Shown here in pieces: positions 26,208 to 38,695 of a stretch of DNA of 49,497 nucleotides (position 1 is the stretch's first letter; each line of letters opens with the position of its first letter). The notes under the pieces were generated by a model. That model worked only from the letters and a program-made list of their open reading frames with translations. It had not been told where the DNA came from and searched no databases. The position numbers and the translations under genes were made by a program. Source of the DNA: a virus (lineage: Duplodnaviria; Heunggongvirae; Uroviricota; Caudoviricetes); the IMG/VR virus record IMGVR_UViG_2660238070_000012, positions 1 through 49,497 of that record; one strand, written 5' to 3'.

Positions 26208-27584
26208 TCATACGTCAGCCCCTTGTGCATATCGTCTGCCACGCGCAGCAGGTGCATTTGATGCTGTGCAAATCTGTCTGGCTTCATCCTGGTCACATGC
26301 AACAAAGTGTCCGTTACAGAACCGCTGGTAAACCGTACCAAGCGAGCCAAAACGGTTTTTCGTCACGATGATTTCAGCAAATGGCGCGGCGCTACTGTTC
26401 TCGTCATATACCGCTTCCCGATAGAGCATGATGATTGAGTCTGCGTCCTGTTCAATGCTTCCTGAATCACGCAAATCTGCGTTTGTCGGGCGTTTGTTTG
26501 GTCGCTTCTCAACATCGCGCGAAAGCTGACTTAGGGAGATAACAGGCGTTTTCAGGTCTTTCGCCATCGCCTTCAGGCTTCCGGAGATGTGAGCAATTGC
26601 TAGGTCGTTGCGGTCTGCTTTCGGCTTCTCAATCAGGCCAAGATAATCCGCCATGATTAGAGACAGGTTTGGATTTTCCTGTTTATGCCGTTCTGCGATT
26701 GAGCGTATTTCTTCGACCGATAACCGCGAGGCATCGACTACCCATACATCCAAATCCGCAAGCTGACTCATGCCGTTAGCAACACGTGCCCAGCACTCGT
26801 CATCCATCGATGCAGGATTTCGCAGCACGCTAACCGACATCCTCCCGGCGTTGGCAATGCTCCGCTCTGCAATCTGCAATGCGCTCATTTCCATTGAGAA
26901 AATCAATACTCCGCGCCGGACGTCAGAACCAGGAATAACGCGGCTTGCAACGCCTTCGGCAATCTTCAGCGCCAGTTCGGTTTTCCCCATACCAGGACGA
27001 GCGGCGATTATCACCAGGTCTTCCGCGTTCATCCCTCCGGTGATGGCATCAAGTTCTTCGATTCCGGTCTTCAGGGTATCGGACTCTTCTCCGTTCCTCA
27101 GACGCCTGTCAAGCGTGTCAGTGTAGTCGGTGATGATTTCCCCTAACCGTACAGGTTTAACCTCGTCACGGGGCTTTCTGATGGCTGAAAGACGCTTTAC
27201 AAGTTCATCCATCGCCTGACTCGATGCGTCGATGGTTCCGCTCTGAATTGGTTCACGCATTTCATCCATGATTTCCAGCACCAGACGGCGGTGATAGTTA
27301 TCCGCGACCATTCCGGCATATCCCTTCAGGTTTGCGGCACTCGGGCAGTTTTTGCTGGTCATCAGGATTGACGTGAAATGCTCCTCTCCGCACGCCTCGG
27401 CAACCATCAGCGCGTCGATTAAATTTCTGTTTCGCGCCTGCTTGCGGATAACCTCGAAGGCTTTCCGGTAGAGCGGAATTGAAAACGCTTCCGGCTCCAG
27501 CGTTGCCAGAACGTCGCTGGCGGTTGGAGTTAATCCACCAATCAGCAGGCCACCGATAACGCTCGCTTCGATATCCTGTTTCAT
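26208..27584 (-). CDS. Replicative DNA helicase, DnaB family
   Basis: 458 aa. Walker A ARPGMGKT and DnaB C-terminal domain signatures. Occupies the lambda P position but is a helicase, not a helicase loader. Confidence 0.9.
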
Positions 27585-28528
27585 GCAATCCCCCTGTCTG
27601 CAAACTTCCCTTCCCGAACTCCCGTTAACGAGTCTTCTCTCAGCAGGTAATCAAAATCAGCCGTCCAGCCCGTGTCGTTGTCTCCGAAGTAAAACGGCTT
27701 GGCCTGATGCACAAACGCCCTGACATACGCCCTGAAACCGTCCACGTTTGGCGTTTTCAGTTGCGGGATGATTTTCTTCAGGCGGCGTTTGCGTTTCTCG
27801 TTGACCGCAACAGCGTGTGGCAGTCTGTCACCGACTTCGGTGTTGTAGGCGTTCAGGAAGGATTCGTAGTCGATTCGTTCTGCCTTGCGACGTTCAGGTT
27901 TAACCTGCCCATCGCCTCCCCCATTGGGGGGTAGGGGGGTATTATTTATATTCTTGTTAATACCTTCTTGTTCATGATGTGCGGTTGTTTGTGCGGCTTC
28001 ATGTGCGCTTTCATGTGCGGCATGTACGCTGAAAGCCGCGCCATTGCTGGCTTCATCATGTGCGGCATCATGTGCGGTTGTTTGTGCGGCTTCATGTGCG
28101 GGTGAATTGTCCATTTTTTGAGCATATTCATGGTAATTTGTGATGGTGATCACACGACCTTTTTGCTTCTCTCCATCAATGGTGATCATCCCCTCTTTCA
28201 CAAAAACCTGAAGCATCCGCTCAACCTGATCACGGCTTGCCGGCTTGCCATGCCTGTCGCATAACTGAAGACCTAAATCAGCTGCTGTCACAACCAGTTG
28301 ACCGGGTTGCAGATGCCATTCATGACCTTTGAAATTAGCTTTGTATGGCTTTCTGGCGGCATTCAGGAGAAGGTTTTCCCACAGGGTGCGAAGATAAACG
28401 TCTTTCGCCCATGACTGTTTCAGAATGCTCCGGTACAACGGAATGTAACCAGTTTTCTGGTTCTCCATCCTGTTGCTCCTGCGCTCGTGTGCGGCGCTGA
28501 AATCGTAGATTTTTGCTGTATTGCTCAT
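27581..28528 (-). CDS. Replication initiation protein (O-like, with repeat-rich linker)
   Basis: 315 aa starting MSNTAKI like lambda O. Internal peptide repeat HEAAQTTAH encoded by DNA iterons. Coupled to the helicase gene. Confidence 0.8.
27975..28105. repeat. Iteron array inside the initiator gene (candidate phage origin of replication)
   Basis: Seven exact and one variant copy of TGTGCGG (as CATGTGCGG / TTTGTGCGG) within ~130 bp, including two copies of a ~35-bp unit, followed by an AT-rich stretch (28105-28140). Analogous to lambda ori inside O. Confidence 0.55.
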
Positions 28529-28530
28529 AA

Positions 28531-28803
28531 CTACCTGCCTTGACGAAAGACCTTAAGAACATCGTTAAACTGACTTACGGATATGTCTTCTTTGAGCAGC
28601 TTTTCCAGAAATGCGTTTGGAATGAACGTATATCCCTCCTCTTTTGGTAGAGACGGGAGCAACGACCTCGCCTCAGCCTTCAGAAGCTCAGTTCTGGCAA
28701 CTTTCACAAAAGAGATTTGAGTTCTTTCATCAATGGAACGAAGGAAGCGCAAACGCTTAACTTCTTTGTGTGTATCAGGTGGATTAAAGCCTTTGTTTCG
28801 CAT
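28531..28803 (-). CDS. Hypothetical protein inserted between cII and the initiator gene
   Basis: 90-aa ORF from the ATG at 28803 with GAGG RBS. Stop overlaps the initiator start region. Lambda has no gene here. Confidence 0.5.
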   Translation of the reverse strand: MRNKGFNPPDTHKEVKRLRFLRSIDERTQISFVKVARTELLKAEARSLLPSLPKEEGYTFIPNAFLEKLLKEDISVSQFNDVLKVFRQGR

Positions 28804-28811
28804 ATAATTAC

Positions 28812-28879
28812 CTCGTTGGATGTTATTAAAATTCCATTTGTATTTGTTCAGAACGCTCGGTTGCCGCCGGGCGTTTTTT
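28812..28879 (+). ncRNA. oop: oop-like antisense RNA
   Basis: 3' end TGTTCAGAACGCTCGGTTGCCGCCGGGCGTTTTTTATT matches the recalled lambda oop RNA 3' hairpin and terminator. TATAAT at 28803-28808 could serve as po -10. 5' boundary approximate. Confidence 0.5.
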
Positions 28880-29119
28880 ATTGGTGAGAATCGAAGCAAC
28901 TTGTCGTGCCAATCGAGCCATGTCGTCGTCAACGACGCCCCATTCAAGAACAGCAAGCAGCATTGAGAACTTTGGAATCCAGTCCCTCTTCCACCTGCTG
29001 ATCTGCGACTTATCAACGCCCACAGCTTCCGCTGTCTTCTCAGTTCCAAGCATTGCGATTTTGTTAAGCAACGCACTCTCGATTCGTAGAGCCTCGTTGC
29101 GTTTGTTTGCACGAACCAT
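28826..29119 (-). CDS. cII: Transcriptional activator CII
   Basis: 97 aa from the ATG at 29119: MVRANKRNEALRIESALLNKIAMLGTEKTAEAVGVDKSQISRWKRDWIPKFSMLLAVLEWGVVDDDMARLARQVA..., matches recalled lambda CII. Confidence 0.92.
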   Translation of the reverse strand: MVRANKRNEALRIESALLNKIAMLGTEKTAEAVGVDKSQISRWKRDWIPKFSMLLAVLEWGVVDDDMARLARQVASILTNKKRPAATERSEQIQMEF

Positions 29120-29150
29120 ATGTAAGTATTTCCTTAGATAACAATTGATT
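29095..29150 (+). promoter_or_regulatory. PRE (CII-activated promoter for repressor establishment)
   Basis: TTGCGTTTGTTTGCACGAACCATATGTAAGTATTTCC on the reverse complement contains the TTGC-N6-TTGC CII-binding repeats overlapping the cII start, as in lambda. Confidence 0.75.
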
Positions 29151-29198
29151 GAATGTATGCAAATAAATGCATACACCATAAGTGTGGTTTAATTTGAT

Positions 29199-29230
29199 GC
29201 CCTTTTTCAGGGCTGGGATGTGTAAGAGCG
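29199..29230 (-). promoter_or_regulatory. nutR (boxB hairpin and boxA)
   Basis: boxB GCCCTGAAAAAGGGC (reverse complement of 29199-29213) and boxA CGCTCTTACA (reverse complement of 29221-29230) between cro and cII. Confidence 0.85.
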
Positions 29231-29237
29231 GGGTTAT

Positions 29238-29447
<210 letters not shown>

Positions 29448-29464
29448 TTAGTACATGCAACTAT

Positions 29465-29528
29465 TATCACCGCTAGAGGTAAAATAGTCAACACGCACGG
29501 TGTTAGATATTTATCCCTTGCGGTGATA
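29465..29528. promoter_or_regulatory. Right operator OR1-OR2-OR3 with divergent promoters PR and PRM
   Basis: Three 17-bp operator sites: TATCACCGCTAGAGGTA (OR1-like), CAACACGCACGGTGTTA (OR2), TATCCCTTGCGGTGATA (OR3), between cro and cI. Confidence 0.9.
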
Positions 29529-29535
29529 GATTTAA

Positions 29536-30252
<717 letters not shown>

Positions 30253-30255
30253 TAA

Positions 30256-30287
30256 AAGGTCGCACAGAAGTGCGGCCTTTTTTATTG
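30256..30287 (+). terminator. Candidate rho-independent terminator downstream of cI
   Basis: Hairpin GGTCGCAC-AGAA-GTGCGGCC (one G-U pair) followed by CTTTTTTATT, starting 4 nt after the cI stop. Confidence 0.5.
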
Positions 30288-30497
30288 GTAGTGATCCACA
30301 CATTGTGCTAACGCATTAATTAGCATTAATATTTAGCTTAATCACAGAACAGCTAAAAATATTTTATCGATAAATATATACATATCAATGAGATAAATAA
30401 AAATGATGCATTTTGTAGCTAATTAATGATTTAGCTACCATTGCCCTGCTTATTTGAAATAAGCTATCATCACCATAACCAAGCATATGGGGGATTT

Positions 30498-31433
30498 ATG
30501 GATACTAAAAAACGAGCTCAAAAAGCAGCAGCAATGTCAGCAATCGTTAGATCAGCTCCAAAGCCAACTCACACAGGATTAATGGCGACAGGTGTTTCTT
30601 GTGCTGTTTTGCCTGATGGTCGCAGAGTGGTTTCAATGCAAGGTGCAAATGGATTGGCAGAAACATTCGGTGTATCTGTTGGCTCAAAAATGCCAAGATG
30701 GGTACCAAATGGGAAGCCAGGTCAATTACCATATGTTCTCCAAGCAAATGAGCTTCAGCCATATATTTCTGATGAACTAAGAGAAGCGCTAGCAGAACCA
30801 ATTGTATATAAAAATACATCAGGTGCAGGTGTCGCTTATGGCATTGACGTTACTATGCTACCAGCGCTTTGCGAGGCATGGACAGATGCTGAGAGGGATG
30901 GAGCCCTACGACAAAAGCATCACTTGAATACAGCTGCAAAAGCCAAAGCGCTCTATAAAGCTCTAGCTAGAGTTGGCGCCGTTGCGCTCGTTGATGAAGC
31001 GACTGGATACCAAAAAGAACGAGAGCGCGATGAACTGGCAAAACTCCTTGAGCAATTCATCGCTAAAGAAATGCGACCATGGGTAAGCACATATCCGCCA
31101 GAATTCTTTGAGGAGTTATGTAGACTCAGAGGAGTCCCATTCAAAGCAAACATGCGGAGACCGCAATACTTTGGTCATCTTGTGAATAACATAACTTATG
31201 ACCGCATGGCACCAGAGCTAAGAAATGCGCTAAAGGAAGAAAGAGCAAAAGCAAAAAAGGCAGGTGCAAAAATGCATCAGTTTCTATCAGAGGGAACTGG
31301 ATATGGTCTTCTTCAAAAGAGACTTACAGGGGTAACAACACTCATGCAAGCAAGCGATACTTATGAAGATTTCATCCAATTGCTTGATAAGGTACACCCT
31401 CTACTAACCGTAGAAGATATTGACGCAGAATAA
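30498..31433 (+). CDS. Hypothetical protein occupying the rexA-rexB locus (candidate phage exclusion factor)
   Basis: 312 aa from the first in-frame ATG (30498) with GGGGGA RBS. Preceded by a very AT-rich ~200-bp promoter-like region. Ala/Lys-rich with no recognised catalytic motif. Confidence 0.7.
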   Translation: MDTKKRAQKAAAMSAIVRSAPKPTHTGLMATGVSCAVLPDGRRVVSMQGANGLAETFGVSVGSKMPRWVPNGKPGQLPYVLQANELQPYISDELREALAEPIVYKNTSGAGVAYGIDVTMLPALCEAWTDAERDGALRQKHHLNTAAKAKALYKALARVGAVALVDEATGYQKERERDELAKLLEQFIAKEMRPWVSTYPPEFFEELCRLRGVPFKANMRRPQYFGHLVNNITYDRMAPELRNALKEERAKAKKAGAKMHQFLSEGTGYGLLQKRLTGVTTLMQASDTYEDFIQLLDKVHPLLTVEDIDAE

Positions 31434-38346: not shown

Positions 38347-38623
38347 CCTGCAACTTGCCGTTAAAGGTGAATACTTCGATGCCATGATTCGCGGGGAGAA
38401 AACGGAAGAGTATCGCCTGTGTAATGACTACTGGAATAAGCGCCTCGTTAACCGTAAGTATTACCGCCTGATTATCACAAAGGGATATCCGAAGCGCGAA
38501 GACTTCAGTCGCAGAATTGACGTCCCGTATAACGGATATGAAATAAAGACAATCACACATCCGCACTTCGGTGATAAACCGGTAAAGGTGTTCGCGATAA
38601 AGGTAAATATCGGCAATAAATAA
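38339..38623 (+). CDS. Hypothetical protein (ASCH/PUA-like?)
   Basis: 94 aa with GTG start. GEYFDAMIRGEKTEEYR...YYRLIITKGYP resembles ASCH-domain proteins. Confidence 0.45.
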   Translation: MANLQLAVKGEYFDAMIRGEKTEEYRLCNDYWNKRLVNRKYYRLIITKGYPKREDFSRRIDVPYNGYEIKTITHPHFGDKPVKVFAIKVNIGNK

Positions 38624-38695
38624 CAATCCTCGCACTCGCGGGGATTTCTTTTATCTGAACTCGCTACGGCGGGTTTTGTTTTATGGAGATGATAA

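Follow-up and report, generated by a model that had tools for sequence, protein, structure and literature searches.

ORF90, a conserved small gene between cII and the replication initiator of a lambdoid phage, and its probable relation to the oop antisense RNA

The region between cII and the replication initiator in the phage record IMGVR_UViG_2660238070_000012, analysed here over its whole stretch of 49,497 nucleotides (the window), is best explained as an ordinary lambdoid junction at which the cII/oop element meets a replication module of the P22/CUS-3 type, a reading to which a probability of roughly 0.75 is given. A 90-codon frame in this region, ORF90, would be a real first cistron, followed by the O-like initiator and then by the DnaB-type helicase, while oop would act on cII, and its promoter, pO, would act by interference, without masking the ribosome-binding site of ORF90. 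The layout had looked like a new antisense target; it appears to be the standard cII/oop/pO junction with a different first replication gene, and the current understanding of oop is left unchanged by the findings. The features of the region are collected in Table 1.

Table 1. Coordinates of the features around the junction of cII, oop and the replication module in the window.
Feature	Position	Strand	Remarks
DnaB-type replicative helicase, 458 aa	26208..27584	-	Closes the module; Pfam DnaB_C (E 1.4e-77) plus the N-terminal domain of DnaB
O-like replication initiator, 315 aa	27581..28528	-	Pfam Phage_rep_O, E 3.6e-15; PHROG 345
Iteron-like 12-nt repeats, core TCATGTGCGG	27971..28101 (27971-28020 and 28052-28101)	.	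Repeat family D1
Degenerate second pO -10, CATAAC	28526..28531	+	Located where the O-like gene begins, in a region alignable with the start of lambda O
ORF90, 90 aa	28531..28803	-	ATG 28803..28801, TAG 28533..28531; between cII and the O-like initiator
Candidate pO promoter, TGGATT-17-TATAAT	28780..28808	+	-10 at 28803-28808, overlapping the ORF90 start codon
Shine-Dalgarno GAGGT of ORF90	28810..28814	-	7 nt 5' of the ATG; kept in most loci
Predicted oop-like antisense RNA, about 65-69 nt	28815..28882	+	Start from the -10 and from lambda/P22 homology; 3' end from the terminator
oop intrinsic terminator hairpin	28850..28877	+	12 pairs, T run 28874-28879; terminator scan
cII, 97 aa	28826..29119	-	Pfam Phage_CII, E 1.7e-48; 96/97 identical to lambda cII
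cro	29238-29438	-	Immunity region

Coding capacity and conservation of ORF90

ORF90 is a genuine protein-coding gene and more than a chance reading frame, because its product matches PHROG 2519 (annotated function unknown) along its entire length (residues 1-90 covering all 90 profile positions, E 5.4e-57), its frame is intact in all 86 loci compared, and its dN/dS lies between 0.03 and 0.22 across all informative pairs, with dS saturated. The product is 90 aa long in 85 of these loci and carries an in-frame deletion of four codons in the remaining one. Comparison of the window with divergent copies gave dN/dS values of 0.06, 0.10, and 0.20, also at saturated dS, and the gene is under purifying selection. 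The original prediction of a 90-aa frame with a good ribosome-binding site between cII and the initiator is thus borne out at the coordinates of Table 1, down to the GAGGT ahead of its ATG, and the frameshifting in relatives that it had named as a refuting outcome was not encountered in the 86 loci. The minus-strand frame is open upstream as far as 29112, which explains the longer versions of ORF90 found in databases; conservation marks the ATG at 28803 as the start.

The gene is widely distributed and is common among prophages of E. coli and Salmonella. By tblastn, ORF90 was found in 57 GenBank phage records, with CUS-3, Gally, JEP4, HF4s, Kapi1, TL-2011a, and approximately 50 Stx2a-converting phages among its bearers, and with Salmonella phage S.Inf 5-2 carrying a copy at 76% identity. 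It is contained in 141 IMG/VR stretches and in 278 of 5426 complete E. coli genomes, two ST131 strains being 100% identical to the window; the PGAP label in these genomes is 'hypothetical protein', under which the gene is already catalogued. Homologues of exactly 90 aa with 68-80% identity occur in Salmonella, Scandinavium, Klebsiella aerogenes, and Pseudescherichia. An exhaustive HMM search of 1.84 billion representatives returned 14 matches, the true relatives among which are all short and comprise ORF90-like proteins, fragments, and forms with a misplaced start, and the sole long match (1975 aa, with a matching part of 25 residues) was judged spurious. An apparent relative from Hydrogenedentota (locus L008) was rejected as an off-frame, low-complexity match. 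The carriers include Stx2a-converting phages, ST131 prophages, and the Gally prophage of the AIEC strain LF82, and a phenotype for ORF90 would help in understanding replication control in medically relevant prophages.

An AF2 model of ORF90 built from the family alignment has a pLDDT of 80 and comprises four helices (residues 12-23, 26-51, 63-71, and 76-87) and, at residues 54-59, a short pair of strands. A search of NCBIfam with ORF90 gave no match, a sequence profile search of the PDB gave nothing meaningful, the fold comparison gave no informative match, and Pfam DUF2740 is absent from the protein at E <= 0.1. A PADLOC match to JetB (E 0.02) was taken as noise, above which nothing was found in that search.

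The beginning of the gene appears to diverge less at synonymous sites than its remainder. Over the first 30 codons, dS is 0.57-0.95, below the mostly saturated values of the rest of the frame, although few sites contribute, and the first five or so codons are nucleotide-identical in lineages with otherwise saturated dS. This low early divergence could reflect either the overlap with the pO promoter or a constraint on translation initiation, and it fits both equally.

The oop terminator and the predicted antisense RNA

The original prediction placed the 3' hairpin and terminator of oop on the opposite strand just upstream of ORF90, and a terminator scan located an intrinsic terminator there that is base-for-base identical to that of lambda. 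As in the oop/pO elements of lambdoid phages, this conserved terminator, tO, lies inside the C-terminal coding region of cII; two of its 12 pairs show compensatory changes in relatives. Two alleles of the terminator loop, TTGCCG and TCTTGCACA, occur at the equivalent of 28860-28866 (in loci L002 and L029, among others), and they switch the C-terminus of cII from PAATERS to PVCKTERS, with the stem kept.

The RNA predicted to end at this terminator folds at -20 kcal/mol (z -3.0) and would lie antisense to the 3'-terminal ~55 nt of cII and to 11 nt of the 22-nt spacer between cII and ORF90. By this overlap with cII, the predicted RNA of 28815-28882 would belong to the oop antisense RNAs of lambdoid phages. 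An Rfam scan of 27500-30500 at E <= 1 gave no oop or other family across the region, the only matches being weak, terminator-like ones after cI.

The pO promoter and the predicted start of oop

The TATAAT at 28803-28808, put forward in the original prediction as a candidate -10 of the oop promoter, is present and is positionally homologous to the pO -10 of both lambda and P22. The hexamer alone is not significant, with 16 occurrences in the window against ~22 expected; judged from the aligned sequences, what counts is its position, which is homologous to those two promoters and invariant in 86 loci. The stretch CGCATATAATT at the candidate promoter is invariant in the 86 loci, including those in which ORF90 DNA is only 69-74% identical. 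In a -35/-10 scan, lambda pO (TTGAGT-17-CATAAT), P22 pO (TGGTCA-17-CATAAT), and the window site each scored 9/12, and a candidate promoter of the sigma-70 type accordingly stands with its -10 over the start codon of the first replication gene, as is the case in oop/pO elements. Its -35 is weak (3/6) and loosely conserved. The same scan found no plus-strand promoter-like site inside ORF90; the only other match, at 7/12, lies downstream of cII.

The start of oop is predicted from the seventh base past the -10, G28815, and is good to about ±2 nt; lambda spacing would give 28816. With a start at ~28815, the complements of the Shine-Dalgarno sequence (28810-28814) and of the ATG (28801-28803) are promoter DNA and would not be part of the RNA, and the predicted duplex between oop and the mRNA would end at about -12 from the ORF90 ATG, 1 nt short of the Shine-Dalgarno sequence. 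It is therefore most likely that oop starts just beyond the ribosome-binding site of ORF90. The start region of the gene had been described as covered by oop, and the predicted start places the RNA past the ribosome-binding site with no overlap of the frame, an outcome that the original prediction had itself named as refuting; indeed, coverage of that site does not follow even from the originally proposed -10, since a -10 at 28803-28808 puts the start ~7 nt later. The claimed antisense relation is accordingly retained for the 3' end of cII, as predicted, and given up for the ORF90 ribosome-binding site, whose Shine-Dalgarno complement precedes the predicted +1.

Neighbouring genes and the replication module

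ORF90 is closely tied to the genes downstream. In all 86 loci, the junction reads TAGnnATG, with the ATG of the O-like gene (MSNTAK...) 2 nt past the ORF90 stop, and a cII-like gene lies 21-23 nt upstream of ORF90. These cII genes have at least four unrelated types of N-terminus and one common C-terminus, NKKRP(AA/VCK)TERS(D/E)QIQM(E/D)F, which is the part overlapping oop; the mosaic joint therefore falls within oop, and ORF90 travels with the replication module and not with the immunity region. The same picture of a mosaic joint is given by the Stx2a phages, whose matches start only at about 28888 of the window. The linkage is not obligatory from the side of the initiator: its type of O-like N-domain is found in 69 phage records, 12 of which (from Klebsiella, Yersinia, and Enterobacter phages) are without ORF90. 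In the records examined, the slot of ORF90 is filled by a 265-aa regulator in Klebsiella phages and by a 59-aa ORF together with a KilAC antirepressor in Yersinia phages.

The resident initiator looks domain-swapped, a chimera to judge from its sequence, in that it shares 58% identity with P22 gp18 over its C-terminal 125 residues, while its N-terminal origin-binding domain is of another type, common to Klebsiella and Yersinia phages. Within the initiator gene, a 12-nt iteron-like unit is repeated about 9-10 times and encodes a His/Ala-rich linker; these repeats probably form the replication origin, which in lambda likewise lies within the initiator gene. Where the O-like gene begins (28493-28551), the lambda pO/O-start junction recurs in decayed form, and the degenerate CATAAC -10 of this second copy is probably inactive. 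The arrangement suggests that ORF90 came to lie with a copy of the module junction on either side.

On the other side of the junction lies cI (29539-30252, plus strand), which we take to be of the lambda type. A two-way terminator-like hairpin at 30246-30287 directly follows the cI stop, and the weak, sub-threshold Rfam matches there (STnc320 and Leu leader) concern the hairpin only. Just downstream of cI, at the position of lambda rexA/rexB, a 330-aa ORF (30441-31433, plus strand) carries a P63C domain (PF10546, E 7.5e-23) and may serve the prophage in an accessory or exclusion role.

Proposed expression of the module

ORF90 would presumably be translated from the early pR transcript by way of its own GAGGT Shine-Dalgarno sequence, and it is probably coupled in translation to the initiator, because 2 nt separate its stop from the next ATG and the last codons of ORF90 contain the Shine-Dalgarno sequence of the initiator. 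The pO-type promoter over the ORF90 start codon should fire an oop RNA of ~67 nt, running from about 28815 to the terminator, and by analogy with lambda this RNA should act on cII through cleavage by RNase III. If pO affects ORF90 and the genes downstream at all, it would then do so through polymerase at pO interfering with the convergent transcription from pR, and not through masking of the ribosome-binding site.

Likeness of ORF90 to the initiator domain

By hhalign (probability 76%, E 2.2e-5), the ORF90 stretch EEGYTFIPNAFLEKLLKEDISVSQFNDVLKVFRQ, residues 55-88, corresponds to residues 26-59 of both lambda O and P22 gp18, and the sub-threshold O-like matches in PHROG fall on the same residues. 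Against Pfam Phage_rep_O (PF04492), ORF90 scores 14.6 bits, below the cut-off of 28.7, and covers profile positions 6-39 of 95 only, which leaves it outside that family. The likeness is to the first strand and two helices of the winged-helix domain, for which the AF2 model of ORF90 has a strand-helix-helix arrangement; in contrast to lambda O and gp18, ORF90 has neither recognition helix nor wing and has a separate helical N-terminus of ~50 residues, and it ends where the winged-helix domain would continue. Lacking the recognition helix and the wing, ORF90 should not bind iterons as O does. When IMG/VR was scanned with the N-termini of lambda O and gp18, every match was a copy of the lambda O query at 100% identity.

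A history that would account for this likeness is that a new origin-binding domain and its origin replaced most of an older N-domain of the gene 18 type, a leftover 5' piece of which survived within ORF90. Purifying selection argues that ORF90 now has a function. It is conceivable, although improbable, that ORF90 is an exapted initiator fragment, made of the helical leader and the first strand-helix-helix of a lambda O/P22 gp18-type domain, and selected for binding initiator subunits, its own or those of co-infecting lambdoid phages, whereby it would tune or poison the assembly of the origin complex, with pO over the start codon setting how much pR transcription reaches it. This likeness to an initiator domain offers one concrete, testable idea, and it is the only lead worth an experiment.

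Alternative explanations

The original prediction amounted to saying that oop RNA pairs across the ribosome-binding region of ORF90 and directly represses its translation, so that the gene comes under oop-dependent control. In its favour, the predicted duplex ends within the 30S footprint, where some effect on initiation is conceivable, the start of oop is itself a prediction with its margin of ±2 nt, and cutting of the duplex by RNase III would sever ORF90 from the upstream mRNA; however, the Shine-Dalgarno sequence and the ATG lie between -10 and +1, the scan offers no alternative promoter inside ORF90 for a longer antisense RNA, and lambda O and P22 orf48 show the same geometry. Regulation by masking is therefore not supported and is considered very unlikely, and the arrangement is not special to an inserted gene, as lambda and P22 have the same promoter-over-start layout. 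Equally unlikely is that ORF90 is a functionless recombination scar, the leftover 5' end of an older initiator gene of the lambda O/P22 gene 18 type. The alignment of residues 55-88 with lambda O and gp18 and the weak Pfam and PHROG O-like matches fit such an origin, as do the stop of ORF90 where the wHTH domain would go on, the occurrence of a lambda-type start junction twice, once per gene start, and the chimeric nature of the resident initiator with its gp18-like C-domain. Against a lack of function stand the low dN/dS (0.03-0.22 with saturated dS, the O-like third of ORF90 included), the keeping of length and frame across genera in 86 of 86 loci, apart from the one in-frame deletion, and the confident AF2 model; moreover, no full-length parent initiator with the ORF90 N-terminus was found among the 1.84 billion representatives. 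An origin as a scar, with exaptation afterwards, is possible.

Alternatively, ORF90 might belong to the accessory (moron-like) early genes, occupy a slot of variable content, and possibly serve host takeover, anti-defence, or inter-phage competition, with no relation to replication control. The varied contents of the slot, with orf48 in P22, the regulator in Klebsiella phages, and the two genes in Yersinia phages, where they stand upstream of the same O-like N-domain, speak for this, as does the occurrence of that N-domain without ORF90 in 12 of 69 phage records. The association of ORF90 with the initiator/helicase pair in 86 of 86 loci, the 2-nt coupling junction, the partial likeness to the initiator domain, and the PADLOC search, with nothing above noise, weigh against it, and an accessory role is regarded as unlikely. 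The region is accordingly read here as an ordinary lambdoid junction with ORF90 as first cistron of the replication module.

Comparison with lambda, P22, and other known systems

Read as an ordinary junction, the region can be set beside lambda point by point. The lambda coordinates confirm that cII (38360-38653) is there directly followed by O (38686), as the original prediction had it. The mapped 5' end of lambda oop, at 38675, pairs with the base just upstream of the AGGAG of O, at -11. In both phages, oop/pO is convergent to pR, antisense to the 3' end of cII, and ended by the identical terminator hairpin, and the pO -10 lies over the start codon of the first gene of the replication module, with the +1 (predicted in the window) just past the Shine-Dalgarno complement. 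The window differs in that its 5' arm of oop is 11 nt shorter, by which the 5' stem-loop of lambda is cut to 4 bp, in having a perfect TATAAT where lambda has CATAAT, along with a weaker -35, and in having the 90-aa ORF instead of O under the promoter. The distance from pO to the iterons is ~350 bp in lambda, whereas the putative iterons of the window lie ~700-830 bp away; the distance from pO to the origin has been examined in lambda as a factor in replication (PMC3985674). In the same study, lambda oop was reported to destabilise cII mRNA through RNase III with the stability of O-P mRNA unchanged, inactivation of pO slightly raised both pR read-through and the level of O, and interference between convergent promoters was indicated (PMC3985674). 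Lambda oop has also been the subject of a review (PMC12197685).

P22 provides the closest parallel for a small gene in this slot. In the P22 record BK000583, the annotated oop promoter covers the beginning of orf48, a gene lying between c1 and gene 18, and the P22 oop sequence obtained by small-RNA-seq, GAUUGAUCCAGUC..., starts upstream of the orf48 Shine-Dalgarno sequence (PMC13397905). The product of orf48 (Pfam DUF2740) is encoded in the same slot as ORF90, with an initiator and then a DnaB-type helicase downstream, and the DNA of the two start regions is homologous; the proteins, in contrast, show no homology and differ in length (48 aa in P22 and 90 aa in the window). A single-sequence hint of protein homology (E 0.002) was discarded after it fell to an hhalign probability of 3% with the family profile. 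A small ORF between cII and the initiator has already been mapped across lambdoid phages (PMC3349717, Fig. S2), and the 'extra gene' at this position is not new as a layout.
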